Source: a virus
Lineage: Duplodnaviria; Caudoviricetes
Length of the DNA: 64,000 nucleotides
Reading direction: 5' to 3' (one strand)
IMG/VR virus record: IMGVR_UViG_3300027819_000006
A program made the translations under genes and the position numbers. The notes beneath the pieces were generated by a model. That model searched no databases. It had not been told where the DNA came from and worked only from the letters and a program-made list of their open reading frames with translations. The first letter of the stretch is position 1. Each line of letters starts with the position of its first letter. Of this stretch, positions 1,834-57,900 are shown piece by piece.

Positions 1834-2982
1834 TCACTGTGAAATCCTCTCAAGAAACTTGACAGCATCGCCTAAAGTATTAGTCTGTTTTCTAATGAAA
1901 ATTTTGATATTATTTTCTATATCTTCATATTTTAGATCGTTCTTCTGCTCTATAATAGAATAGCACTGCATGATTACAGGAAACAGAAACTCTGATTTAT
2001 TAGCAATTGCTAAATCTTTCCTGCTTCCTTCAAAGACCATAAACTTCATTTCTATTTCATCGATCGATTTAATCATCCAATGCAGTATTTTATGTGTAAT
2101 ATCTTCAATTTTTGTTCTTGCAGGATCATCTTTATCAATTGCAGAAACTGCATCGTCAACATTCTCATTTAAAATTGCTGAAATAATCCAATTCTCTTTT
2201 CCAATATCTTCTGTGAGTAATTTATGATTATCAAGATACCACTGAGTTTTGATCTTCATCATCTGTCCATCTTCAAAAGTAACAACCCAACCTTCTGTAT
2301 CTTTTAAATCTTTAGTCAAATACATGAGATAGTCTAAATTATTAGACAGAGGAGTGAAATATGGAACAGTTTTGATGCCAAATCTATCTTCATATTTATA
2401 GACATCTAAATACTTGCCAGTGTCTTCTTCTCTTAGTTGCAACAACTGCAATTCACTTTTCCTATATCGTAGAACAATTCTATTTGCAGGGCTAATGTAT
2501 TCAAAAATTGCTGCCAAATTGTTGTCTAATGTGTAATCAATGAAATATTTGAATTCTTTATCTGAATTATAGACACTTTCAGCAAATGTAGTCTGATCAT
2601 TTCCAAAATCATATTTAGTTTTTGCAATAACTCTACCATTTGGAAGACGAATAAAACGAATCATTGTCCCATCTAACTTGTCCTGAATTCTGATAATCTT
2701 CTTATATTTTACGTCTGAATAATGATAACCTTCAGTTTGTCCAAGGTTAAAGAATTTATGAAGCATTATATACCTCATATTTCTATAATTAATATAAGAT
2801 AATCCTCTGAGTTCAAAAGCTTTATAATCTTCATCGCGCAAAGGTTTTTCAAAATCAGAATAACTTGCAAGTCTATAATTGAACACATGAATATCATAGC
2901 CATCAACATTGACAATCTTTTTAAGAAAAGCATCATTATTTCTGACTATTTCTAGAGCTTGATTATAGTTTGGTATAAACAT
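1834..2982 (-). CDS. rnlA: RNA ligase, T4 Rnl1 family
   Basis: FELRG, HKFFNLGQ, motif I QDKLDGT, FEYISPANRIV, EGWVV and MMKIKTQWY nucleotidyltransferase motifs. Confidence 0.85.
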   Translation of the reverse strand: MFIPNYNQALEIVRNNDAFLKKIVNVDGYDIHVFNYRLASYSDFEKPLRDEDYKAFELRGLSYINYRNMRYIMLHKFFNLGQTEGYHYSDVKYKKIIRIQDKLDGTMIRFIRLPNGRVIAKTKYDFGNDQTTFAESVYNSDKEFKYFIDYTLDNNLAAIFEYISPANRIVLRYRKSELQLLQLREEDTGKYLDVYKYEDRFGIKTVPYFTPLSNNLDYLMYLTKDLKDTEGWVVTFEDGQMMKIKTQWYLDNHKLLTEDIGKENWIISAILNENVDDAVSAIDKDDPARTKIEDITHKILHWMIKSIDEIEMKFMVFEGSRKDLAIANKSEFLFPVIMQCYSIIEQKNDLKYEDIENNIKIFIRKQTNTLGDAVKFLERISQ

Positions 2983-3893
2983 TTATTTTATTTCTTTTAT
3001 CGACCATCCATTAGTGTTGTTTCGCAATTCTGTTTTTCTATTACATCTGCTTTCTGATATGATGCCCTTGTCTATATGAATTCTTATAGTATTATATGAA
3101 AGTTTATTCTCTTTACAAAATTCTGTTAATCTGCCGTGCACCATATAATAATTATCAGATCTATCTATTAAAACATAAGTTTTTGCATTGCTTTTTACTC
3201 CATTTCTTTTTCTTGTTTCTTGAATTTTGTTTATATGCTCTTTAGTAAGTTTGCATCCAGTTTTATGTTTTTTAGTAGATATAGATATCTTTTCTCTCGT
3301 TTCTAAGCTGTGAGTTCTTCCATAGAAACTATTTCCTTCTCCAGTTTGAGATTTACTAATTTTATCTTTATTTTCTTGTTTATATAGAGGATTGTCTTTT
3401 TTAAATCTTTCAGATGCTTCTTTTTTTCTTTTTTCTATTTCTGAACTATCTTTCATTATTTCTTCATAAGACTTTCCTTTAAAAGCATCAGAAAGTTTTT
3501 TTTTTGTTTCTGGTAGGGTTTCATGTCCCGTAAGAGATTTTGATATTTTTGATTTTATATCGTCAGATCTTTTTATACCAAAATTTACACTATCTTCTCC
3601 AGCGCCCCAGCCATCTCCTCCAGGAGTTATGTTATATCCATCTTTCTGACTATTATAGAATTTAATATAAAACATTTCTTTGTTTTTTATTTCATTTATG
3701 TCATCTGATTCATCTAAAAGCTTTACTTCAAAATTTTCTTTTGAATATTTTTTAATAGCTGAAGCTATAATACTTCTACCCCTTTTACAATCATTGTTGC
3801 AATGTTCTTCAAATCTTTCTTGTATAGTTTTAGAAGTATATCCTATGTAGCATTTATTGTTATACATGTTATTTTATATATTTTATATTTCAT
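2983..3893 (-). mobile_element. Free-standing GIY-YIG homing endonuclease with NUMOD3 repeats; frameshift near the N-terminus
   Basis: KCYIGYT, RFEEH, EMFYI...GYNITPGGDG and HxxETxxKIS repeats. The RBS-preceded ATG at 3893 (MKYKIYKITC) is in a different frame from NNKCYIG. Confidence 0.85.
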
Positions 3894-39537: not shown

Positions 39538-39882
39538 TGGTGGACCTGGAGAATATCGAAATTCTCGTGTAGTCTATGCTACATAAAAATTGTATTGTAC
39601 ATGCTTTTGCAAATTCTAATTTTTCATTCTGTTATAAAGAATTAGCAAAGTTTATAACAGAATTATTCTTTCTATTTATTAAAAGAAGTGTTCTTATCAG
39701 ATATGAATGATGCTATTCTATTTCCTATCTGCAAAATTTAGATAGCATAGCTGTTTAGCTCTTAAGCAGCTAGTTTGTATTGATTTTTGTCAATTACTAT
39801 TTTGCTGTAAGTTTAAAGAGTTTATAGCAAACTCTGCATGCAATTCTTACTTTACATACCTATCGATTCCAATTTCAGGCCC
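39538..39882 (-). ncRNA. ssrA: tmRNA (complete, 345 nt), tag (A)DKNQYKLAA
   Basis: 5' GGGCCTG pairs with 3' CAGGTCC-ACCA including G3.U70; T-arm GAGAA-TTTCGAT-ATTCTC; tag ORF 39762-39791. Confidence 0.93.
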
Positions 39883-42953: not shown

Positions 42954-44945
42954 TTATGAAGTCACTTTTGGATTTGACCTACTCATGATAGAACTTACGA
43001 AATTCAAACTATCAGTTGCACAATTATCGCAATAACCATATTCACTAATTAATCTTCCTTTAACTATATCTATTTTAGCTTGAGTATCTGAATCTACTAC
43101 ACCCGTAACAAGCTGATTAAGTTTAATTGTGTCTTTCTGATCTTCAAACAATTTCAGTTCAAGAGCCATTTGCAATCTTGGATTAGACTTATAATCAAAT
43201 TTCTTTCCGTCTACAGCTAACCCTCCAATATAGTTCATGATTGCAAGTCTGAAATCTCCTTTTCTTTCATCTGGAATATCAATTTTTTCTTCAATTGCTC
43301 GCATCAATCTTTCATCTGGCTCTTCATCTTTACCAGTATATTTATTTTTAACCTTTTCTTTTGAAGTGAAAGCTTTAATATTGTCGATATAATTCTGACA
43401 AATTCTAGCTAAACCTTGATCATCTGCTGCAATAGCTCTCTGAACTTCTCTTTTTACAATGTATTCATACTCTTCTTTTACATCATTTAATAAAGCTCTA
43501 AATTTCTTTCTTGTTTCTGGAGATGAAGTAAGTGAATAAATATCTAAACCTTTGTCTAATTCATTCATTACCATGAATGGGTTAATACATTTGAATTCTG
43601 AATTAACAATTGCATTTGAAATCTTATCTTGAATATATCTTGGAGAAATCCCTTCCATACCTTCTCTAGATTCTGCTTGCATCATTTCTTTTACATGATC
43701 TTCTGTAAATCCAGGTAAAGTTTTACCATTATACAATTTCATTTTCTGTACAATTGATAATTTACCACCTTCAGGATCTCTCAGTCTTGTCAAAACTGAC
43801 CACATTGCTGCAACCTCTAAAGTATGTGGAGCAATATGAGGATCTTTCATATTTTTAAATCTTTTTTCATAAATTTTCATTTCAGAATCAAGAATCTTAA
43901 TATATGGAATATCTACTCGAACAGTTCTATCTCTTAAAGCTTCCATACTCTCGTTTTTTTGCAGGTTTACGAAATCGGAAGCATTACAATGTCCCAAAAT
44001 TACTTCATCAATATCAACATGACTAAATTTCTTGGGTTTTATCTTATGCTCTTGTGAAGCAGTTAATAGATCATAAAGGAATGCTACATCTAATTTGAGA
44101 ACTTCAATCATTTCAATCATACCTCTATTTGCTACACAAAATTCTCCATCAAAGTTGAATGCTCTTGGATCAGAATCTCTACCATATTCAGCAATTTTTC
44201 TATAATCAATGTCTCCAGTTAACTCTGTAGAGTCTTGATTCTTTTCATCTTTTGGTTGAAATGTAGCAATTCCTATTCTATCATCTTCTGAAAATACATA
44301 TTTGAATACTTTAATATGATTGTCATAAATTTTTTCCACATCTCCGCTATATTTAGTCATCAGTTCATTGAAATAAAATCTGCATAAAGGACATAGATTA
44401 CCTAAAGATTTTCCAAATCCAAAAGTTTCTCTATGCTCTAATGGAATTAGATGTAGAGGATCTTCGTGCATTGGACAGACTACTTCAGTCTTATTTTCAT
44501 CATCTAATATCCATTTGAATGAATATACAGCTCCATCATCTTTCTTGCTGTATTCTTGAAGTCCCTTCTTCATTAGTCTAGCAATAGTAGATTTAGATGA
44601 TCCTACTGGCCCATGTAATAGAAAAATTCTACTTTCTGTACCATAACTATTCGCAGCAGATTCAACTAGCTTTACAAGCTTCATTAAATGGGGATCTATT
44701 CCATATACTGCATCTAGACCATCTTCCATAGGATCATCAAAGAAATTATAATGAATTACTCTTTCTTTAAAATGAGTATATTCATTAGTCCCATGAGATA
44801 AAATCATGTCAAACATTCTCTGAAATGCATTTCTATATAACTTTGGATTTTCTTTACATAGATCTATATAATTATTGAAACTCCCCTCCCAGTGCTCCCT
44901 ATCATACTTTGTCTGTTCTAACGCTGAGATAGATTTAAAATCCAT
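42954..44945 (-). CDS. prkA: PrkA/YeaG AAA+ ATPase/kinase
   Basis: [39 protein letters not shown] and EGMEGISPR. Confidence 0.95.
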
Positions 44946-44970
44946 TTTGTTTCACTTTCTCCTATTTTTA

Positions 44971-45669
44971 TTATATGAACTGCTCTATGTAATTTCTATC
45001 TTCTGTGAATATTGGAATTTCATTATCTATTTTCCAATAACCTTCTATTTTAAAACAACACGCTCCTCTTTTAAAACTTGTTATTTCTTTTTCCCAACAA
45101 ACATCAACATCTTCTAATAGCATCTGTTTGACTTCTTTTGTGCTCTTGCTATCTAATTGTTTGTGAGAAAAGTGTTTCTGTCCTAAACAATTTATACTAT
45201 TTCTTTCACAGTCTTTCTGTCTCCAAATGAAATAATTGCAAACTTCTTCTTTGGGTAGAGAAAATACTCTGCAGTCAAAGAAAGCTGTTTGTAGTGGTAC
45301 TTTTAATTTAATAGGTTGCAAATATATATTTGCATAAGCTGTACATAATGAAGCTGCTACAGAAACTATCTTTTGAATATTACCACCAAACCACTGTTCA
45401 GTTTCAAATGTTTCATAGTCTGTCAACAATAAAGAAATTTCATCTGATTGAGTATAAGCTAATTTACAGTTCTGAACTTCACCACACAAATCTAATATTG
45501 TATATTTGAAAGCATTCATTAGATCTTCGTCATACGGCTTTTTCAGATGCTTTGTAAATGTATGGAAAGCCTTGCCATCCAATCTGATAATTGCTGGCAT
45601 TCTTGGAATTAGACGTTGTTCAGTGAAACATTTCTCAAATTTCTTCATGCGATCTGCGATATTTATCAT
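44971..45669 (-). CDS. thg1: tRNA(His) guanylyltransferase Thg1/TLP family (3'-5' polymerase)
   Basis: IIRLDGKAFHTFT, AYTQSDEISL, FDCRVF and YFIWRQKDCERNS. Confidence 0.93.
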   Translation of the reverse strand: MINIADRMKKFEKCFTEQRLIPRMPAIIRLDGKAFHTFTKHLKKPYDEDLMNAFKYTILDLCGEVQNCKLAYTQSDEISLLLTDYETFETEQWFGGNIQKIVSVAASLCTAYANIYLQPIKLKVPLQTAFFDCRVFSLPKEEVCNYFIWRQKDCERNSINCLGQKHFSHKQLDSKSTKEVKQMLLEDVDVCWEKEITSFKRGACCFKIEGYWKIDNEIPIFTEDRNYIEQFI

Positions 45670-45677
45670 AAAAACTC

Positions 45678-46403
45678 CTATGGATTGAATCTACTACCCC
45701 AATTATTATGGATTTCTTTATGACACTTCCTGCAAAGTATTAATCCATTCAATAAGTTTTCATCTTTTATTCTATCACAATTAGCTAAATAAGCAGCTTT
45801 ATCATCGTCACAATCGAAAACAATATTACATTTTGCTAATTCCTCTTTTATTAATATGACCATAGGAACTATATGATGAGCATCTAATTGTTCTTTGCTT
45901 CCGCATTTTGAACATTTATCATATGCAGCATACATTTTATTGTACCATTTAAATCTTCTACTGACTTCTATTTTAACTTTAACTGTTAGAGTGTGAAATC
46001 TACCACCTTTCCATGCAGTAGCATTTTTGCCGGTCTTGCCTGTTCTCGATATAGACATTTTATTCCTAGTAGCTATAGAATGTTTTTTATGATACATACT
46101 ATTTTTAGGACCAGATGTATCTCTAATTTTTATAGCATTTTGATATTTTTCTGAATTTCTTACAGCATTTCCATGTTCTTTCTTTTTTTCATCAGTCCAA
46201 AATGCTTTAGTTCTTTGAGGAGGATGATTTATGGGAACTATTTTTCTATAACATGGCTGGCATATATCTATATGAGATTGTCTATTTATTTTATTTCCAC
46301 ATTCACACATCATATTATTTCTACAGGGTCCACATATTTCGTATCCACATCTTATAGAATCTTCTTTTAATTCATTATTACAGCTGCGTATTTCACATTT
46401 CAT
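45678..46403 (-). mobile_element. NUMOD3 + HNH homing endonuclease
   Basis: True start MKCEIRSC after AAGGAG; KHSIATRNKMS, AWKGG, CSKCG..LDAHHI and NGLILCRKCH. Confidence 0.85.
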
Positions 46404-46523
46404 TTTTATCTCCTTGAATATAATAAATATACTCAAGAGAGACAAATGAATCAATCGGCCAGAGAATCTTCGATCATAGTAACCTCCTGTTTGTCTTTAT
46501 TTTTAATAAAATAGCAATCAGAT

Positions 46524-46670
46524 TTAATCTAGAAGCAGTTTTTTATTCTCTGTTAATGATTGCTCTTTTATAATTCCAGTACCTAAGCAATTAGGACAGA
46601 TTTCAATCTTTTCTTCTAGTTTTATTACTTTCTTGCCTTCACAGATCTTGCATATGATCACATCTGACAT
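46524..46670 (-). CDS. 48-aa DnaJ-type zinc-finger peptide
   Basis: Hand translation MSDVIICKICEGKK...ICPNCLGTGII. Confidence 0.65.
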   Translation of the reverse strand: MSDVIICKICEGKKVIKLEEKIEICPNCLGTGIIKEQSLTENKKLLLD

Positions 46671-46671
46671 G

Positions 46672-47391
46672 TCATTTTTCCCTCATTAATATGATGATTT
46701 TATCTAATCTTACTACAGTATTTTCAATCACAGTCATGAATTGCTCTATAGTTTGTTCAATGTTTTCTATATCTTCTTTATTATATTCTTTTTCTAAATT
46801 TTTGAATATAGTATATAGCCTGAGTACTTCAATTTTAACTTTGTCTTTATTTCTCATTTTTAATAGTTATGTAATACATTGATTATAACTTCATCAGGTA
46901 GATTGTCCATATAGATAAAATAGTTGTTCTGAACCACAGATTTTACAAACTGAAAACCATAGACATTTTCTACTACATTTTTAATTTTAGCTTCACCATA
47001 TTCCATTGGAATGACTATTATTCTTTTATTTGTTATGCTTGCTTGTAATATCTTCCATACCAAATCTGGTCTTGTTTTGAACGTTCCAGTATATAGAATT
47101 TCAAAATTATCTCCCCACACTTTCTCTGTCAAACTATTTCTCCAACTAAGTTTGTTCTACAACTTGATTGTTTGCTACTTTCCATTGTTCAGCTGACAAA
47201 ATGATATCACTTGTTTCATCATCTATTCTCATGTTCAGAGGCCAAATACTTTTACACTGATTAGATTTGCCATCTTCAGTTTCTATCCATACAGTGCCCT
47301 CTATTACAGAATCTGGCAAACTATTTAGACAGTTTTTTAGCTGTCTAATTGTGATTCCATTTGAATTTTCTAGTTTTTTGATCTCTTCCAT
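46672..47391 (-). other. Small hypothetical ORFs (46672-46857, 46860-47132, 47146-47391)
   Basis: Contiguous ORFs with RBSs. Confidence 0.6.
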
Positions 47392-47392
47392 T

Positions 47393-47602
47393 TTAACACT
47401 CGAATGAATTTCTTATGAAATGTATCAGATATTCTTTACTAGCTCCTTCAAGCTGCATTTCTTCTGCTTTATCAAGTATCAGTTTAAAATGTGGTCCTGG
47501 CTTAATTCCAAGAGTAATCAGATCATTTCCAGTTACAAGTCTTGGTGCATTAATCTTGTCTTCAGTAAAATCAGGTTCTGCAAGTTTTGCAACCAGAAAT
47601 TT
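47393..47602 (-). pseudogene. C-terminal remnant of a CCA-adding enzyme/poly(A) polymerase
   Basis: Hand translation KFLVAKLAEPDFTEDKINAPRLVTGNDLITLGIKPGPHFKLILDKAEEMQLEG...*; no start codon or RBS. Confidence 0.75.
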
Positions 47603-47608
47603 GTAATA

Positions 47609-47637
47609 GTTATAAACAATTTTGATGCAAAAGTAAA
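47609..47637 (-). promoter_or_regulatory. Early promoter copy (TATAAC variant) fused to the CCA remnant
   Basis: TTTACT TTTGCATCAAAATTGTT TATAAC. Confidence 0.75.
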
Positions 47638-47703
47638 TAAAAAGATGCTTCCCATATAAAATAAATATATAAGAAACATCACTTTAAAACATCTGTCTAA
47701 CAA

Positions 47704-50700
47704 CTAAACAATCTTGAAACCATCTACAGAATATCTAGAAATTCTATTAACCTCTTCTTCTTCATGTTTCTCCATCTGATTCAAATAGAAAGCAAATCTC
47801 TCTTCTATATGCTCGTTCAAATCGTAAACTTTATCAGAATAAACTTTCAAATCTGCTGCTTTCTTCTTTGATTCTTCAAAATTCTCGACATGTTTAGATA
47901 TAGCATCTGTCCACACTTTAGGAGCTGTAACACTTACTGCCATGTTTTCAAATCTTAGTTTATCGGGAACAGTTTTCCAGAAGTCATGATAACCTCCATA
48001 ATTGCTGAATACTGGGACTGCTCCATAATACAAAGATTCTATCAGCTTTATCTCTGATTTGCACTCGCTAAATGTATTATGTTCTACATATGCCAAAGAT
48101 ATATCAAACAGAGTATAGAATTTAGCATATTCTTCTAGAGGCAGAGCATCAAAAATTTTTATTCTCTTTGGATCAATACCTGAATATAGTTTCTCTACTC
48201 TGTTTCTATAAGTCAAGCTCTTGTCTTGCAATTCCATTTCTCTGAATTTAGCCTGACCATTCTCGTCATATTGTATTTCTACTTGTGAATCTTTCAATGC
48301 CATACCAGCAAGCACAAATACAGTCTGTGGATATCTGTCATGTATGACTTTTAGAATGGAATACATTTTTCTCAGATCTTCAAAATGACTTGTAAGACCT
48401 GCCCAGCCAATAACAATTTTATTGTCAGTTGAAGGAAACCATTCTGGTAACATTTGCTGTCTAGTATCAGAAATATTTAAATTCCATTGTGGCAGTTGCC
48501 AGTCAAACATATTTCTGATTATATGCACATTCTTATTGAAATTTCCAAATGTTTTACATAGTTTCTCAGTAGTAGTTGTAATAGCATGACTCTTGCTTAG
48601 AGAGTGAATGCTCATTTGATCTTTTTTGCTTGCATCAATTATGTTGCGATGATATCGATTCCATATCATCTCTTATGGTCACCCATAAGTTCAGACTATT
48701 TCTTGTGCTATATTCAAAAGCACCTCTCTGTTTCAGCTTCTCTTGAAGCTTACATTATATAGTCGTTGCACTATCTGTGTTTCAAATATTCAGCTATTAT
48801 GCTGATTACTGCAATAAGAGATATTACAGATAAAGCATATATTAAAATATACTTTCCAAATAGCTCAGAGTTTTCTCAGTGAGATTTTCTCTGAATTAAG
48901 AGAGTTTTTATTATGTGAAGCAATTTAATACCACACATCACGCATCAATTATGTTATCTTAGAAGTTCTTTATCTTCTAATTCTGATAATTTTATTCTTA
49001 TCAGTTCGGACTATATCATCAGTATTGAAATACTGTCTCTTTTTCTTGGATATTTCTATCTAGTCTCTGAACCTTCTATTTTATCAATAGTTTAGCTGCT
49101 GATTAGCATTTCAGCTTTCCAGCAATTTAAGAGATTTTTCATTGAATTATTCAATGCCCCAATTTTTATTCAGGGTGCGTTCTTGGTAAGTTGAATTCAT
49201 TATCTATTTATTTGTTAACTGCAATTTCTTTTATTATAGTTGCAGATCGGACTATTTCATCTAGTTCTATGTCTAGTCTCTGAACCTTCTATTTATATAG
49301 CTTGGCTGCAGATTGTCTCTGTCTGAGATATCCCTGCAATTTATAGAATTTATTGTGGACAATATTTGAATTCTAAAAACTTAATCCACATCATGACAGA
49401 CCCAAGCAGATTTCTCTGTCTTCGGCCACATGTTTACTGCTGATAAAAAATGTGAATGTAAATTTCCACATCTGTGCATTATTATTCCATCTGCTAATTT
49501 GAGATGATTCGGTTGTCATTTATGTTGCGGAATTTATTCGCAATAAGCTGCTGAAAATAATATGCATGGTTTCTTAACTTTTATATTGATTTCTTCGAAG
49601 CTATAATCTCTAAAAGTATGAAAATTAAATTCATCTTCATTTCCAAAAGATCTTTTTAGTGTTGCTTTAGCCTCTTCTAAATCTTTTGCTGCTATAAAAA
49701 TTATACTAAGTGAATAACCTTTACATGCTTTTACTTTAAAATATTTCATAATAAATTCCTCTACAATTTTTTATATTGTTGTAGTTCGGACTATCACATG
49801 ATCTTATAATATACTAAGCTGCTACCATTCAATTTTACCAGATTTACGAACTAATTTGTTGCCATATAGAGTAACTACTAATACATCTTCTAATACTTTA
49901 TATGTTCTTTGTGCAGCGTTTGATTTAAATAATTTCTTAACAGAAGCTGCTTGTTTCTTAGTCATATATCTGTAATTCACCATAAGACCTCCAAGGTTTA
50001 GTCTCTTCTACTGCATTTTCATGCTTGTAGTTTGTTAGCTTTAATTATGTTTCTAATTTGTTTTTTGTCTAATTTATCAGAAGATATTACGCATCCAAAA
50101 TCGCTAGTATTTTTAGTGTCAGGATGTTGATAAATGTGTAATCCAAATTTGTATTTTAAAACATGTTCTAATATCTCTATGTAGCTCATTGGACCTCCTG
50201 CAATTATTTCTTGATTCATAGTCAAAGCCTTTCAATTTAATTACTTAAGATTCTCATTTCTATATTGCTATAGAATGATCCACATTGTCTAGATTTTCAG
50301 TATAAACTAAATTTATCTCATCTCTAAAATTCTTCCACAGTACTCTCATCGGTTCAAAGATTCTGAAATATGCTTTCATGTTAGCTACAATTTTTGATAT
50401 AGTTGTAGTTCGGACTATCATATGATCTTTATGCTTTACCAAGTCTCAGGATCATTTCTATAAAAGTGTACAAATGCTAAAAATATTATAATACATCCTA
50501 GTGGTAAAATTAAACATTTTAGATCTCCAATCGTTTAGTCTCTCAAGCTGCAAAATTGTTTATAAAGCTTCCTGTCTTGATTAAAATATACTTTTTCTAT
50601 TGAAAGCTCTACTAAATTATAAATATATGCACACTTTCTATTATCTTTGGGACATCCTGGATCTTCTGCTTCTAAATATATAAGAGGAGAATATTTATCT

Positions 50701-51309
50701 CTATATATTTTAGCAATTTTATAATCCCAACTTTTGAGCTGTCTTACCTGAACTTCAACCCAAAAAGGCATGTACCTATAGTTCATCATGTTTTGCTTGC
50801 TCCTTGTTGTCTGATTTCTATGATCAGATATTCAAGTGATTAGATTAGATTCTCATTCTATATTATTAGAATGACACCATTTAAAATGTTCCAGTTTCTG
50901 CTTTATGTTAATCTCTAATTTTTTGTATAGTTAGAGTTCGGACTATCATATGATCTTTACAGATTATTAAAATCAAAACCTTCTCCTTTATAATTCTCTG
51001 TACAATATGTCGCAACGAATATTAAAAGAAAAATTATTATTCCGCCCATAAAAATCTCCAATCGTTTAGTCTCTCAAGCTGTATTTAAACTTGTTCCTTG
51101 TTGTCTGAATTTTATTCAGATATTCAAGTGATTAGATTAGATTTTCATTCTATTGCTTATAGAATGCCGCCAGAATTTAACGGAGTGCTAAAAACGATAC
51201 AGCGCTTAGATCGATCGATGCTAGATGGATTAGTGAACATTTGTTTCAACTTGTTTCTTTCTTCAGCATTTTTATAGTTCAAATGCTCTTCTACATTTTC
51301 TTCTGTAAT
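47704..51309 (-). CDS. GT-B glycosyltransferase (GT4-like), 446 aa after splicing out six group I introns
   Basis: Exons 51309-51180, 50900-50886, 50372-50291, 49516-49384, 49204-49172, 48945-48930 and 48635-47704 join to 1341 nt in frame: RCIVFSTPSETGTSYFRIFEP...HDVDDNEFNLPRTHPMRDVWYASKK...VIGWAGLTSHFEDL...FSECKSEIKLIE. AUU start after AAGGAG. Confidence 0.88.
48636..48929 (-). mobile_element. Group I intron F (294 nt)
   Basis: AATTCAGAGAAA, AACTCTGAGC, GTGCAACGACTA and GAAATAGTCTG; P9 hairpins; end GCAACATAATTG. Confidence 0.87.
48946..49171 (-). mobile_element. Group I intron E (226 nt)
   Basis: AATTGCTGGAAA, AATCAGCAG, GTTCAGAGACTA and GATATAGTCCG; end AACATAATTG. Confidence 0.9.
49205..49383 (-). 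mobile_element. Group I intron D (179 nt, non-canonical 3' junction)
   Basis: P1 GUGGAU/GUCCAC, AATTGCAGGGA, AATCTGCAG, GTTCAGAGACTA and GAAATAGTCCG. Confidence 0.85.
49534..49749 (-). CDS. 71-aa hypothetical ORF in the P9 region of intron C
   Basis: GAGG RBS overlapping the P9 stem; MKYFKVKACKGYS. Confidence 0.65.
   Translation of the reverse strand: MKYFKVKACKGYSLSIIFIAAKDLEEAKATLKRSFGNEDEFNFHTFRDYSFEEINIKVKKPCILFSAAYCE
49822..49983 (-). CDS. 53-aa hypothetical ORF in the P8 loop of intron C
   Basis: GGAGG RBS; MVNYRYMTKKQAASVKK...GKIEW*. Confidence 0.65.
   Translation of the reverse strand: MVNYRYMTKKQAASVKKLFKSNAAQRTYKVLEDVLVVTLYGNKLVRKSGKIEW
50019..50189 (-). CDS. 56-aa hypothetical ORF in intron C (upstream of R)
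   Basis: GGAGG RBS before MSYIEILEH. Confidence 0.6.
   Translation of the reverse strand: MSYIEILEHVLKYKFGLHIYQHPDTKNTSDFGCVISSDKLDKKQIRNIIKANKLQA
50373..50885 (-). mobile_element. Group I intron B (513 nt)
   Basis: P1 ACAU/GUGU; core nearly identical to intron A; terminal G before CATATTTC. Confidence 0.88.
50535..50789 (-). CDS. 84-aa hypothetical ORF inside intron B
   Basis: AAGGAG RBS; its stop codon lies within the R element; no endonuclease motif. Confidence 0.7.
   Translation of the reverse strand: MMNYRYMPFWVEVQVRQLKSWDYKIAKIYRDKYSPLIYLEAEDPGCPKDNRKCAYIYNLVELSIEKVYFNQDRKLYKQFCSLRD
50901..51179 (-). mobile_element. Group I intron A (279 nt)
   Basis: P1 CCGU/GCGG, P10 UUCUG/CAGAA, R CTTGAGAGACTA, S ATGATAGTCCG, terminal G. 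Confidence 0.88.
50957..51049 (-). CDS. 30-aa hydrophobic peptide in the P8 loop of intron A
   Basis: GGAG RBS; MGGIIIFLLIFVATYCTENYKGEGFDFNNL*. Confidence 0.5.
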   Translation of the reverse strand: MGGIIIFLLIFVATYCTENYKGEGFDFNNL

Positions 51310-51357
51310 GTTAGTTCTCCTTATTTAAATGTTTAACATCTATTTATTTTATAAAAC

Positions 51358-51393
51358 AAAAACAAAGCAATTTAAACTGCTTTGTTTTTTGCT
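51358..51393. terminator. Hairpin with flanking A/T runs, possible bidirectional terminator
   Basis: AAAAACAAAGCA...TGCTTTGTTTTT. Confidence 0.55.
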
Positions 51394-51448
51394 GAAATAT
51401 GATGCCGCTACATCTATTTCGTTACTACATCTTCTCTTGGAAGATAAG

Positions 51449-52321
51449 CTATTTAACTTCTACTTCTACTTTATCTACTGGTTTTGGAATTTCATCTGTA
51501 AATTCTGTGATTGAAATAGAATCTAAATCTACTCTGCACTTACCTTGCAGAATCAGTTTCAATTTTGTTGCAGATTCTCCACACAGCATTCTACAATCAT
51601 TACCAAATTGTACATATAGAAAATCATTATTTACGTGAGCATTTGTAATCTTGTTTAAGTCTAATATAGAATCATTGACTTTAACAAAATAAGGTTTAGC
51701 ATTATCGACCAATATCTTCAATTCATCTACTACTCTATTAAAATCTTTATTCTGTGATTTAATATCTATGTTTTGTTTAATGATAGTCTCATCTAGCTGC
51801 TGATTAACTGATTTCTGATTTTTGAGTTCTAATTTTATCTTTTCTAATTCTTCTTTCAACTGTTTTACATCTTCTTTCTTTTTACCCAACATTTGTAAGT
51901 TCCTTTTTAAACAATATTAACTGTTTTATTTAGTAGTTCTTTTTAATTTATTAGCAATTGCTCCGTAATATTTTTCAGCAATACCATTAACTAATATAAT
52001 TTCTATATTCTCTTCATCTAATACTTTATTTGATTTCACTGTGCATATTTTATTTAAATCTATTGTATTGTCTTCTACTGACACGAAATGGTTCTCATTC
52101 TTACAAGTTATTAATTTCAATTCATCTATCACAGCATATAATGCATCAAATTCTTTTTTAGATAACTCTTTTTCTTTTAACCTATTCTGTAATTCTTTTA
52201 TAATGTCAGATTGTATTGCAAATAGACTATTCACACGCTTCAGTTCTTTTTCGATACTTAACAGATCTTCTTTTAATATTTCGATTTCTTCGTTCTTGTC
52301 GCTTTGTCGCATAAACAGCAT
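51449..52321 (-). other. Two tandem paralogous coiled-coil proteins (51449-51892, 51926-52321)
   Basis: Shared FVxVxDxxxDLNKI C-terminal motif. Confidence 0.7.
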
Positions 52322-52333
52322 ATGTATTCTCCT

Positions 52334-53556
52334 CTAAATAGTGTTCACAATTGCTTTATAGTAGTTGTTTGTATCCTTTCTGATAAAAATTTTGTATTTG
52401 TCTCTATAATTATATATTGTCTCATCTTGATCTGATACTCTTCTAGCTTTACCTTGAAACACATGAACATTAATTTTTTCCAAAGCAAATAGAGCTGATT
52501 GATAACTCATAGGTCCAGACTGCACTTCTTTGTCATTGACTTTAAAAAGTGTAAGTTTTGCATCTCCTCTCATCAGTTTGAGAAGAATTAGATCTGTGAT
52601 TGCTTCAGATAAGTTCAATCTATTTCTTCTCTAATTCATATACAGAAGTTATGCAATAAGCAACAGTTCTATTTGTTTGCTGTCCCATTGCTCTAAAATC
52701 TGTGTCTACATGTTTTACACTGTATCCAGAATGTCCTTTTTCTCTCAGTACTCTTGGAATATCTTTTGCAATTTCATCCATCTCATCTTGCATGCTCTTC
52801 TGAGTATCTGTATAGTTTGCCGGAGCATACCTCTGAGTCTTTAAAAGCATTTTAGATCCTTCAAACTTCACATTTACTTCTGGGATCTTTGCTACATAGT
52901 TTCCGACAGTTTCTATAGCATCTCTGACACTAGTATCTTTGACTCTGTTTGGAGACTTGTCATATACATCTCCTACAGCTTTTCTGACATCTTTTTTGAT
53001 ATTGTAGTCATCTTTTGGTATGAAATCTGCTGCTTTTTTTGCTGGCATTTCTATTTAAGCTCCATGTGTGAATCTGTTTCTTTTAAATATTCTTCTACTT
53101 CAAAATAGTGAGGATTAAACTTTTTAAAACAATCTCTGCACATACCTAATATTGCGTAATATTCAGAGTCATCTGCATCCATCAGTTTATTGCATCTTAT
53201 ATTGGTATCAGGATCTAGACATGTGCAATACCATTGCCTGATATCTGAATCTTCACTTTTTCTTTCAATTAGTTTGTAACCTGATTTTTGTGTTACAGTT
53301 TTCATTTATCTGATTTTTCTAATGGGAAGAATTTGCCTTCGTCTAAGTGGTTTTTTCTAGTACATTCTTCACAAGCTCCAAACTGACTAAAAAATTGTGC
53401 TGACCATCCCGTCAGTAGATTACCACATTTTTTACCATGTTCATCGACTCTGTCGCAAAAAACTGGAGAAATAGGTTTGTGATTTTCTTTTATAGTGCTC
53501 ATGTTGCTGTGCCATTTTTTTGTTTTATTTATTGGCAATCCTTGAAAGTTTTCCAT
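52334..53556 (-). other. Hypothetical ORFs (52334-52618, 52620-53048) and two paralogous zinc-binding ORFs (53051-53305, 53302-53556)
   Basis: CNKLM...YAILGMCRDC and CGNLL...FSQFGACEEC. Confidence 0.65.
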
Positions 53557-54428
53557 TTGCTATCCTTTTTTAAATCTTCATAGAACAATATATAATATAT
53601 GTTTTCTAAATTATATTTTTCTAGAAAGTTTTTTATTTTAATTTTATTACACTCTGTTAAATATCCTTTGACTTCTTCTATTCTTATCAAATTATCATTC
53701 TCATCATAAATAAAGAAATCAGGAGTATATGTAGTTCCTTCTAATCTATATGTTATTTCTTCATACTTCCAGTTTGCAGATATAGAATCTAAAAATTGAG
53801 CCCTCTCTAATTCATAAGAAGATTTCAAATAATAATCTCTATATTCACTTTTTATATATCGATTTTTTATATTTGGGCTAACTTTTCTGCTCTGAACTAT
53901 CTTAACATTTCTATCGAACCACATCTCTTCAGCTTTTTCAACACCATATTCAGCTATCCACATATCTTTTACTGATACACCAAACATCCCATTCATAGAG
54001 CCAGTTAAACTCCAAGTTCCATTTTTCTTTTTACTTTCTTCTGATTTTGTAGTAATTTTTATCATAGTTTCTTTAGAATGGCGATGTCCAGTCATAGGAG
54101 GTATCTGTTGCAAACGTTTATCACGTCTTTCTTTTGAATCATAGACATGTTTTTTACAATATCCGTATTTATTCGGATTAATCCTTTTATTACAGCCTTC
54201 ATGTTTGCATATTACTTTTCTGTCATCAAAATATTTTCGCTTTCCATAGTTTGGACCATGGTGTCCTATACAAATGTAACATCTCAAAACTTTATTACTA
54301 ACGATATTATTCAGACATTGATTGCAATATTTATCTATATTGCTACAATATAAGCAGAAACTATATTCTTCAAATTGCATAGAGCGTTTATTACATTTGC
54401 TACATTCTCTGATAATTTCTTGTATCAT
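53529..54428 (-). mobile_element. Zn-finger/NUMOD3 + PD-(D/E)XK (TnsA-like) homing-type endonuclease
   Basis: HSKETMIKI; LKSSYELE...WKYEE...YTPDFFI...IEEVKGY. Confidence 0.75.
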
Positions 54429-54437
54429 TTATCCTCT

Positions 54438-54503
54438 CCAACTAAAGTTAAAGGGCTTCAGCTGAGTTGGCAGCTAATTAAGAGGTAATTAATCTCAAGC
54501 CCT
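54438..54503 (-). ncRNA. Structured cis-regulatory RNA, copy 2
   Basis: AGGGCTT/AAGCCCT stem, ATTA-CCTCT-TAAT and TAGCTG-CCAACT-CAGCTG; the loop is complementary to AGTTGG at the RBS. Confidence 0.7.
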
Positions 54504-54607
54504 GGTTATTATTTTTATTCTTCAGGTTTTGCTAGTTTTTAAATTTTTCTTCCAACCTCTAGTTTTTCTGATAGGAAGTCCAAGCTCTTCTGCTATATTA
54601 TTTTTTT

Positions 54608-54925
54608 TCATACTCTTCTTTCTTCGAATGTTGTGTATTTTGGAAATCTTTTATAATCTTTGTTCATCTTGTAGTCATTATACCACCAACTCTTTATTTC
54701 TGTATTCACTCTATCTAGTCCATGTTGCTCTACATATTCTTTAAATCCAAAATTGTCTTTGAACCCATCATAGCTACTCTTCATATCCATAGATCTAAAT
54801 ACTTCTGCAATCTTTGTGATAGTAGCTTTTCTATCTCTTTTTTGTAGCATAGCAAGAGCTATATAAGCTAGTTCAGAGAAAGAGTTAGTTTTAGTAGATT
54901 CATTTAGAATATTTTTTAATTTCAT
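54608..54925 (-). CDS. Leader-bearing hypothetical protein
   Basis: MKLKNILNES start. Confidence 0.65.
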   Translation of the reverse strand: MKLKNILNESTKTNSFSELAYIALAMLQKRDRKATITKIAEVFRSMDMKSSYDGFKDNFGFKEYVEQHGLDRVNTEIKSWWYNDYKMNKDYKRFPKYTTFEERRV

Positions 54926-54971
54926 ATATTAAATTTAATCAATCTCAATGTAAAAGTAAACAGCTAAATAT

Positions 54972-57900
54972 CTATGCATGTACATTTCCAAATTGTGGAG
55001 TCCATACAAAAGCTCTGAATGCAGATGCTGAACCTGTAAATCCACCAGCATTATAAATTCTAATCCATCTATATGCACCATTCCCTACGTATGCAGAAGC
55101 CGTAATATCTCCAACACTAATCCAGTTTCCTTCAAAATCTGTAGCAGAAGCAGAAGCTTGATTAAATCCAGATGCATTGCTTGTAGGTTTGAAGGAGAAA
55201 TTAGTTGGATGAACATAGTGCCCAGCCTTTGCTTCGTCAAATGGATTGCTATTATTTACTTGCAGAATGAATGTTGTTCCAGATGCAGGTGCAGCTGTTC
55301 CATTTGGAATTATCATTGTCCAAGCATTTGTATTAATATATGCAAAATTTGTTGCAGTATTTGTTGATTGCATGATATTGGCAGACAGTGATTTTGCAGA
55401 AACATCGTCAATAATTCCACCACCTGTAGAAGATCCAGTCATTAATGCAGACACTGCATCTACTATAGCTCCACCTGTTGGAGATACTAAACTAAAACTG
55501 ATATCATCTACATAAGAAGTATTAGTTATTCCATTTAGAACAAAGTTGAAATCATCTAATATTACACCGCCAGTTACAGATTGTTGAGCTAATGTAATAG
55601 AATCTATTTGAGCTGTTGGACCATTTACTTTTACGAATGTTCCAGTAACTGTATCAATATAAGCTGTTACAGAATTGTCTGTAGATTCGCCAAGCCACAC
55701 CCAAACTGTTGAAGCAGTATTAGCCCAAGTCAGAGATAATTTCTCATATGCAGCTGTTACAGTAGAAGTTGTACTTGCTTGCCAGTTAGTTCCCCCTGAA
55801 TTGGGTCCTACTCTCATTACTACTTTACCTGCTGTTGGTCCTTCTACATATACAAATGCAGATACAGCATAATCAATACTTGTAGATAAGCTAGTCAATT
55901 GTTGAGCTATTACAGAAGATAAACCAACATTTGATACATATCTAATTTGTTGTGATGAAGATCCTGCATTTACTGGAGTGGCTGTTCCTGCTCCTGACAA
56001 TGAAAATGAAGTTACTTCTGTCGCAGATACTGCGTCTAGATATACTAAACATGCTGTTGCAACGTTAGCATTTGTTATTGTGACCCAAACATTTGAAGCT
56101 GTATTAGTCCAATTTACAGTTTTGAGTGTATATGTAGCTCCAGTTACAGATAAAACATTACTTGTAATAGATCCAGAATCTGCAGAATTTGCTTTAATTG
56201 CTAAGGTTACTGCTAATCCATTACCGCTATTTGTAGCATTTAAGTTTTCAATTCTTAATAATGCAGATAAACTATATGTTGCATAAACATCTAATCCTGT
56301 AAGATTTGTTGCAAAAGCACTTGTTGAAGTGGAGTTCAAAGGATATCTTAAAACTTGAGCAGATAATCCTTCATAAGCTCCAGCTCCGGAAGTTATAGAA
56401 GCTGTAATCGTTGCATTTGCTACCCAACCTGAAGCAACATTGCTTGCATCAAATCCTTGTTGAAATCCAGAGTTAGAAACTATATTTGAAACTGCATAAT
56501 TTCTAATTGTAGAAATCCATCCATTTCCTATACCATTTGTAAATCCATTTTCAAATGTTCCAGATCCAACAATTGCAGTTTCTGGAGTAATTGTATCTGT
56601 TACCCAAATCCATAATGAAGTGGCGGTATTAGTCCAACTAAATGCAGTATTTGTATATGCTCCGGTTACAGTAGCAGTTGTTGAAGCTTGAAAATCCTTT
56701 GCTCCAGAATTAGGTCCAACTCTTAACATTAATTTATGCATTTGTAAAGCTGTTGTTGAAGCTAAGAAATTTATGTAAGCACTAACAGCATAGCTTACCC
56801 AAGGAGTTAATCCTGTAATATTTTGTGATAGGGCTTCTGTTTCATCTGCTGTTGAACTAAATATTAATTCTTGCGCTTGAGTTCCAGAATATGGAGCTGT
56901 TGATCTTTGAACAATTAATCCATTTGAGCTCTTTAGCCAGCTTGCCGCTAATCCATTCGTAAATGTTGATTCAAAAGTTCCATTTGCTATTTGATTAGTT
57001 GTATTGCCTTTATATCTTGATCCAACCCACATCCAAATACTATTAGCACTACTATTTACTGTGGTTGTTAAAGTTTGTAAAGCTGCTGTATTTGAAGCTG
57101 TCATTGAATTAGTCCAATCTTTTCCTCCAGAATTTGGCCCTAATCTAATATATGTGTCATATACTCCTGAAGTATTTAAGCTAGCTAATTGAGCACTTAC
57201 AGTTACAGAATAATCAGATAATGAAGATAATCCTGTAAGATTTTGTGTAAATATTTGTGTTTCATTGGCATTTGTATCCCAAGCTAATCTTTGAGCAGAA
57301 ACACCCAAACCAATAATCGTTGTTTCAACAGATCCAGTGATTCCAGAACTTGATCCAGACCAAGAATTTGCAAAACCTCCGTTATAAGCTCCTTCAAATC
57401 CAGAATTTGAAATAATATTTGTTGTACTTGCTCTGAAATCATCAGTAACCCAAACCCACACTGAAGTTGCAGTATTTGCCCAAGATAATACTAAAGCTTG
57501 ATATGCTGCCGTAGAAGAATCAGATGCAGTTGCAGATGCTTGCCAGTCTCCAGCTCCAGAGTTAGGTCCTACTCTAAATACTAAGTTATGTTGTTTGAAT
57601 GCACTTAAATTATTTGTTCTTACCCAAGCTGTTGCAGAATAATTGTGGTTTGTACTTAAACCTGCAACATTTTGAGCAAATGAAGCTACACCAGATGCAG
57701 CAGTTTTAAAAGCCAATAACTGAGAAGATACTCCTCCATGAACTATCGTCCCATTTGCTTGTGCAGACAGAGAAGAATTTGGAGAAATTATCCATCCTGC
57801 TTCTATACCATTTGTATAAGCAGCTTCCATATCTCCATTAGCAACCATGCTAGAAGTACTTCCAGTATAAGAAGCAGTAACCCACACCCAAACATTAGAT

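Follow-up and report, generated by a model that had tools for sequence, protein, structure and literature searches.

A 179-nucleotide phage group I intron without P8 that appears to end in A

Group I introns interrupt protein genes of phage T4 (td, nrdB, and nrdD/sunY) and of Staphylococcus phage Twort (orf142), the latter with several introns per gene. The 3' splice site of these introns is set by P9.0 and P10, and the second step of group I splicing is generally taken to require a terminal guanosine, almost without exception. To our knowledge, the T4 and Twort introns all end in G and keep P8. Here we describe a group I intron, called intron D, that appears to do neither. It is located in a gene for a glycosyltransferase-like protein within a 64,000-nucleotide (nt) stretch of viral DNA (Duplodnaviria; Caudoviricetes; IMG/VR record IMGVR_UViG_3300027819_000006), and this whole stretch is referred to as the window. 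Unlike the T4 and Twort introns, intron D is without P8, a terminal G, P2, and P7.1/P7.2. The Azoarcus pre-tRNA-Ile intron (205 nt) is likewise a very small group I ribozyme without an open reading frame (ORF), but it differs from intron D in having P2, P8, and a terminal G. Intron D, at 179 nt, is the shorter of the two, as was correctly pointed out in an initial annotation of the locus.

A terminal A itself is not new in kind. In hexacoral mitochondria, the ND5-717 intron has an A as its last base and its exons are exactly ligated in vivo; the authors of that work suggest that the terminal A prevents hydrolysis at the 3' site and circularisation (PMC6545197, PMC8146996). ND5-717 resembles intron D in having an A in place of the conserved G, a compact canonical core, an ordinary guanosine site, and a protein-coding host gene. 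It differs in being mitochondrial and strictly vertically inherited, and in carrying a giant P8 insertion that holds whole genes, whereas intron D is found in a phage and P8 is absent. Furthermore, the splicing of ND5-717 is shown by RNA, with back-splicing in some taxa, whereas that of intron D is inferred here from sequence. A second precedent, as far as the title of the study tells, is a self-splicing 23S rRNA intron of Coxiella that lacks the canonical terminal G and, together with a partner, flanks a 34-bp exon (Raghavan et al. 2007, in PMC11270868; see also PMC4990558). The likeness is that the exon between introns D and E is only 33 nt long and that D is without a terminal G; the difference is that the Coxiella host is a bacterial rRNA gene and that splicing was demonstrated. 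These two precedents temper the finding. What is particular to intron D is that it has no P8, that P9.0 supplies evidence for the register of the 3' splice site, and that there are three adjacent, re-targeted insertion sites.

The host gene lies on the minus strand and encodes a glycosyltransferase-like protein of ~443 amino acids. It is interrupted by six group I introns and thus consists of seven exons, among them micro-exons of 15, 33, and 16 nt. Hundreds of intact homologues of this protein occur in metagenomic phage contigs, and a tblastn search with them located the pieces of the protein between 51309 and 47731. Excision of all six introns yields a single open frame with 63.5% identity to an intact homologue (P0020) over 433 residues. 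The splice junctions were curated by hand; automatic junction scoring was confounded by the micro-exons. Gene finders pick up only the last exon. The introns, and the two exons that flank intron D, are as follows.

51179-50901, minus strand: intron A, group I.
50885-50373, minus strand: intron B, group I.
50290-49517, minus strand: intron C, group I.
49384..49516, minus strand: exon 4 (133 nt), encoding QPNHLKLADG...WVCHDVD, matched by tblastn to homologue residues 77-120.
49383-49205, minus strand: intron D, group I (179 nt), which has a short P5 and is without an ORF, P2, or P8.
49204-49172, minus strand: exon 5 (33 nt), GAT AAT GAA TTC AAC TTA CCA AGA ACG CAC CCT.
49171-48946, minus strand: intron E (226 nt), with a canonical U.G pair, a terminal G, P7.1, and P8 (Rfam score 61.8 bits).
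48929-48636, minus strand: intron F, group I.

Where does intron D begin and end? Exon 4 finishes at 49384 with ...CAT GAT GTG GAT. The initial annotation used a canonical P1 (GUGGAU/GUCCAC) to place the 5' splice site after GTG GAT, and this placement is borne out by the U.G pair, by an unconstrained fold that recovers this P1 along with P4, P5, P6, P7, and P9, and by the guide sequences of related introns. On the 3' side, G49204 is the first base of exon 5, whose peptide DNEFNLPRTHP is 100% identical (11/11) to residues 121-131 of P0020. The A49205^G49204 junction (AAAUA^GAU, in which a caret marks a splice site) is the only cut that restores HDVDDNEF, which agrees with the earlier statement that the frame and the D-D motif require the intron to end in A. 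If both canonical sites are cut, the frame shifts, again as stated earlier. The alignment of homologues proposed in the initial annotation to distinguish DD from DY favours DD: across 95 full-length intact homologues, the second D of the motif HD[VA]DDNEF (D121) is invariant (95/95) and the first (D120) is present in 94/95. Introns A, B, C, E, and F of the same gene all have a U at position -1 and a G as their last base, and intron D alone ends in A.

The relatives with which intron D was compared are introns in contigs with truncated homologues and one metagenome pattern match (L019). The elements of intron D and its flanks are as follows.

49389-49384, minus strand: 5' strand of P1, GUGGAU, the last six bases of exon 4.
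49361..49373, minus strand: P10 strand GAAUUCAAAUAUU, in the long P1 loop; its partner is the 3' exon GAUAAUGAAUUC.
49355..49360, minus strand: internal guide sequence GUCCAC, which serves as the 3' strand of P1; its G pairs with U49384.
49343..49348, minus strand: 5' strand of P3, UUCUAU, which pairs with AUAGAA at 49270-49265; a compensatory change relative to UUCCG/CGGAA of the relative L043-D.
49289..49338, minus strand: P4-P5-P6 domain, with P4 UGCAG/CUGCA, a short P5 UCUC/GAGA, and P6 CUAU/AUAG, from the minimum-energy fold and the Rfam alignment.
49274..49286, minus strand: J6/7 and the 5' strand of P7, GGUUCAGAGACUA, containing the canonical guanosine-binding G.
49261..49270, minus strand: 3' strand of P3, AUAGAA, then a 4-nt linker, CUAG, at the place taken by the P8 hairpin in relatives.
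49245..49260, minus strand: J8/7 AUGAAA, 3' strand of P7 UAGUCC, and J7/9 GAUC; A49247 and U49246 form the 5' strand of P9.0.
49219..49245, minus strand: P9 hairpin CUGCAA...UUGCAG, from the minimum-energy fold.
49205..49218, minus strand: 3' tail UUAACAAAUAAAUA; A49207 and U49206 form the 3' strand of P9.0, and A49205 is the final intron base.

A series of comparisons converges on A49205 as the last base. In a MAFFT alignment of the 3' tails, from the 3' strand of P7 to the exon, A49205 and the A of L019-D share a column with the terminal G of five relatives (L005-D, L043-D, L034, L035-D, and L041-D). For example, the L043 tail reads CUAACACAAAUG^GAUGAC and the L019 tail reads UUAACACAAAUA^GAUGAU. 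Because A49205 occupies the column of the terminal G, the change is a substitution of G by A and not a dropped G, and this result, together with the same A in a diverged relative, disfavours the missed G that the initial annotation had considered. The P9.0 pairing points to the same base. In all seven tails (14/14 cells paired), the dinucleotide just ahead of the terminal base is paired with the central two bases of J7/9, as AU:AU in L005, L043, L034, the window, and L019, as AA:UU in L035, and as GU:AC in L041. Two of these pairs have changed on both sides (a G-C in L041 and an A-U in L035). When the 3' partners are slid by +1, the register in which G49204 would be terminal, the four pairs that were scored (both of P9.0 and the outer two of P9) fall from 96% to 29% paired. 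The P9.0 rule is obeyed by 10/11 terminal-G introns among D-, E-, and F-type tails. The initial annotation was right that P10 cannot separate the two in-frame options; the P9.0 register can. Intron D has both P10 and P9.0 for positioning of the 3' splice site, and it has no terminal G. Protein conservation, the tail alignment, and the P9.0 register indicate that its last base is almost certainly A49205.

The P10 of intron D begins with a G(+1).U pair that immediately adjoins P1. Its RNAduplex energy is -7.5 kcal/mol, compared to -2.7 +/- 1.7 for shuffled exons (1% of shuffles are as good), and it is the strongest P10 within its intron family. The base directly 5' of the guide is a U in both clear terminal-A introns, where it pairs with exon G(+1), whereas the same base is a G in the two terminal-G introns at one of the neighboring sites described below (V^DD).

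The core of intron D is compact. Its P7 (GGUUCAGAGACUA ... AUGAAAUAGUCC) has the guanosine-binding G-C pair with its J6/7 and J8/7 flanks, and the closing pair of P7 co-varies among relatives (G-C versus A-U). P3 and P9 have changed in sequence relative to those of the relatives, with pairing kept, which, like the strong P10, speaks for selection on the intron. Compared to L043-D, intron D retains P3, P4, a shortened P5, P6, P7, J8/7, P9, and P9.0. P8 has 0 nt, as opposed to 59 model positions in the Rfam model RF00028, which leaves the P3-P8 domain incomplete although P3 is present. Where intron D carries CUAG, L043-D has the P8 hairpin CACUUGAAAAAGUG. It is the missing P8 that makes intron D so short, a point that the initial annotation had overlooked. 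When 821 bases are scanned, RF00028 matches intron D (49228-49407, minus strand) with 51.4 bits, just above its gathering score of 50, and E = 5e-12. Scans of the 64-kb window and of a 12-kb part of it (44000-56000, with E up to 10) gave no group I match. All six group I introns were thus missed in these two scans, although two of the introns exceed the gathering score in the short scan. Rfam negatives on AT-rich phage DNA are unreliable, as the speed filters lose introns. A separate observation from the minimum-energy fold is that the 5' strand of P3 (UCUAU within 49343-49348) pairs with AUAGA at the 3' splice site (49203-49207). This AUAGA repeats the true 3' strand of P3, AUAGAA, and the alternative pairing would mask the terminal A and exon G(+1).

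The relatives of intron D are inserted at three sites in the V-D-D-N stretch of the host protein, as follows.

Site V^DD: L005 (last base G), L043 (last base G, 229 nt, no ORF), and L019 (last base A).
Site VD^D: intron D of the window (last base A).
Site VDD^N: L035 (last base G) and L041 (last base G).

The guide is readable in 5/6 of these introns (all but L041). It is found 10-23 nt inside the intron and is complementary to the end of its own exon, with the U.G pair last. The pairings are GACGUU/GAUGUC in L005, AUGACGUU/GACGUCAU in L019, CGACGUU/GGCGUCG in L043, GACGAU/GUCGUC in L035, and GUGGAU/GUCCAC in the window. This co-variation of guide and exon places the 5' cut in the window after U49384. 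One intron family sits at three sites 3 nt apart, and the guide is re-fitted at each.

Intron positions also shift within other conserved motifs of the gene. A comparison of the window (47704-51309) with L001, L005, L019, L034, L035, L041, and L043 found SET^GTS in L035 versus STP(S) and GT(S) in the window, QP^ in L005, L001, and L035 versus EN(L)^ in the window, and NLP^ in L034 versus THP^ elsewhere. The NLP^ and THP^ sites both follow CCCU, and every shifted intron has a matching guide. The shifted positions look like repeated re-targeting of ORF-less introns.

L019 provides an independent occurrence of the terminal A. The tail of L019-D shares 86-88% identity with those of the terminal-G introns L005-D and L043-D but only 65% with the window tail. 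In their last exons, the host proteins of L019 and the window share 59% identity, and each is nearer to the terminal-G host L005 than to the other. With the A^G junction, L019 has an intact frame of 457 amino acids with 66% identity to homologues. These relationships suggest that either the terminal G was lost twice or a terminal-A lineage persisted through a long divergence. A candidate third case is L032 (45-46% identical), whose ORF-filled intron reads GAU^G...AAUAA^GUUGAU, with the same sequence in a second, independent assembly. No clear P1 could be made out in L032, and the U^...A^ and G^...G^ boundaries yield an identical mRNA.

How would the exons be joined without a terminal G? We favor the explanation that intron D is a working, stripped-down terminal-A group I intron, and we put its probability at roughly 0.6. 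An external guanosine would attack after U49384, as in ordinary group I splicing. For exon joining, the 3' splice site would be fixed by P9.0 and P10 instead of by a terminal G gripped in the P7 pocket. A49247-U49246 of J7/9 would pair with A49207-U49206, the two bases preceding the terminal A, and a long P10, which matches exon base G49204 with the U immediately 5' of the guide, would exclude G49204 from the guanosine pocket. The terminal A would be tolerated at some cost in rate, and joining of GAU to GAU would give the invariant HDVDDNEF. The A itself would have arisen by a G-to-A substitution in a family that occupies three neighboring sites in different phages. The sequences themselves show the register, the conservation, and the covariation, whereas the splicing of intron D, its accuracy, and its efficiency are inferred, exact ligation only from exons that stay intact and conserved across two to three diverged lineages. 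A more far-reaching version, which we offer tentatively, is that a 179-nt ribozyme lacking both P8 and a terminal G splices accurately by means of only P9.0 and an extended P10 that sequesters the exon G, and that the family repeatedly lost the G and had its guide re-targeted to sites 3 nt apart within a single conserved motif.

Several observations weigh against a working terminal-A intron. P8, usually a core element, is missing. The guanosine-binding pair of P7 is the same as in the relatives, with no sign of a pocket adapted to A. Because this G-C pair is unchanged, a terminal A should bind poorly and joining may be slow. G49204 directly follows the A, and its use as a terminal G would shift the frame. 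Introns A, B, and C of the host gene depart from the P9.0 rule, which is thus specific to this sub-family, and the sample behind it is small. The L019 contig has only ~4x coverage and a second L019 intron also seems to be without a terminal G, which may mean decay or sequencing error. Finally, the comparative set is small, with seven tails, two clear terminal-A cases, and the ambiguous L032.

The main alternative is that intron D is a crippled relic, in which the G-to-A change at the last base and the loss of P8 would have put an end to accurate splicing. In this phage the gene would then be a recent pseudogene or expressed only in traces. It is consistent with this explanation that the P8 nucleotides and the terminal G are both gone together, that the guanosine pocket carries no compensating change, and that 2/3 of the L019 introns are without a terminal G, which could reflect decay. 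However, all seven exons are intact, including those of 15, 16, and 33 nt, in a gene that keeps its 63.5% identity to P0020. Since even the nearest relative reaches only ~65% identity over the last exon, inactivation would have to be very recent. Furthermore, the terminal-A state recurs in a second lineage (L019) with an intact gene, and P1, P3, P4, P6, P7, P9, P9.0, and P10 still pair in intron D, whose guide has been re-fitted to a new site. The initial annotation had left open a terminal-A intron, a shifted splice, and a defective or mis-assembled copy. The first of these is the one we favor, and the defective copy is unlikely but keeps some weight.

A shifted splice, in which the intron truly ends with G49204 and its 5' cut is moved, is very improbable. 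It would retain the near-universal terminal G and keep the frame, and a small intron in another contig (L067) ends in ...ACAAAUAG^. There are only two in-frame, stop-free options, one with the 5' cut a base later, GAUU^...AUAG^ (DVDYNEF), and one with it two bases earlier, GUGG^...AUAG^ (HDVDNEF). The GAUU^ variant would use another P1, GGAUU/AAUUC, followed by a P2 hairpin, UAUUG-UCCA-CAAUA, a layout like that of introns A, B, C, and E of the same gene. However, each option loses a residue of the D120-D121 pair that is conserved in the homologues, and neither cuts at a U.G pair; the initial annotation had already recognized that a cut one base later stays in frame, gives DVDYNEF, and loses the U.G. 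The alternative P1 and P2 fold is disfavored because the relatives with a readable guide have no P2, and the four closest relatives have their guide at the same place as GUCCAC. In addition, the P9.0 register breaks on a one-base slide, and it is the A, not the G, that aligns to the terminal column.

A sequencing or assembly error, whereby base 49205 is really a G or one G was dropped from a canonical intron, has a very slim chance of being correct: a single assembly of this phage was examined and exact-pattern contig scans gave no second copy of it, but L019, an independent assembly of a diverged phage, has the A in the same column with the exon G next to it, which makes a simple assembly error unlikely. 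Two independent assemblies agree on the A^G junction of L032, and no frame errors are seen elsewhere in the window gene. A dropped G (AAAUAG^GAU) would put UA instead of AU before the terminal base and break P9.0, so the error could only be a substitution, a rare kind of mistake in assembled contigs. A frameshift at intron D mended by a shifted cut at intron E was also considered and rejected, as exon 5 matches the homologues at 11/11 residues in the frame given above.

If intron D works as a terminal-A intron, it bears on several questions. Each natural exception helps to reveal how the choice of the 3' splice site is divided among P9.0, P10, and the guanosine pocket. Intron D is small and ORF-less, and its close terminal-G relatives L043-D and L005-D offer a ready comparison for kinetics or structure. 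The absence of P8 would test whether textbook parts of the core are dispensable, and P8-less terminal-A splicing would be, if true, a minimal natural model of exon joining without a terminal G. Annotation rules that require a terminal G would set the junction one base off and predict a frameshift. The three sites 3 nt apart with re-fitted guides bear on the movement of ORF-less introns.

Searches for further copies added few loci. Exact-pattern scans of viral contigs and of genome contigs returned nothing relevant, and a single metagenome pattern scan returned 23 loci, of which one (L019) was relevant. A protein-based scan of viral contigs found 30 loci, nearly all of them intron-less, with one canonical small intron (L067). 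The same type of scan of genome contigs found no loci, and a search with the 44-amino-acid exon-4 peptide gave no match. One sequence, P0106, was rejected as an intron case because it is a frameshifted long-read gene. In a blastn search against known phages, the sole match was a 70-nt P7-P9 stretch of intron E, found in Staphylococcus phages. A literature search for the smallest group I intron and for group I introns without P8 yielded nothing usable.

Two of the related contigs show further features of their introns. Intron A of L019 (1837-2060, in a Hainich contig) has a U.G 5' site, ACACCGU^, and a P10, CAGAA/UUCUG. The conserved STPSETGTS (S44 in 94/95 homologues) needs a cut at ...CCAGGUGAC^CAGAAAC, which would leave a terminal C; the sole terminal-G option gives STPPETGTS with a C at position -1. 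The L019 gene would then have two introns that do not end in G, in a contig with the low coverage given above. In L032, a 368-amino-acid ORF is called at 2678-3784. Its ATG overlaps the last exon bases (CACG ATG AAT...), and it spans the whole intron, including the ribozyme core, and stops just beyond the 3' splice site.

The apparent start of the glycosyltransferase gene in the window is an ATT at 51309-51307, 7 nt past an AAGGAG (51322-51317). There is no in-frame ATG, GTG, or TTG upstream of the region that already aligns with homologue residues 1-4. Elsewhere in the window, a transfer-messenger RNA gene is present at 39538-39882 on the minus strand (Rfam RF00023, 56.7 bits; gathering score 47). 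The region 42954-45690 on the minus strand holds adjoining ORFs of 665 amino acids (PrkA-type kinase-like) and 239 amino acids (Thg1-like, tRNA-His guanylyltransferase-like), both judged by eye.

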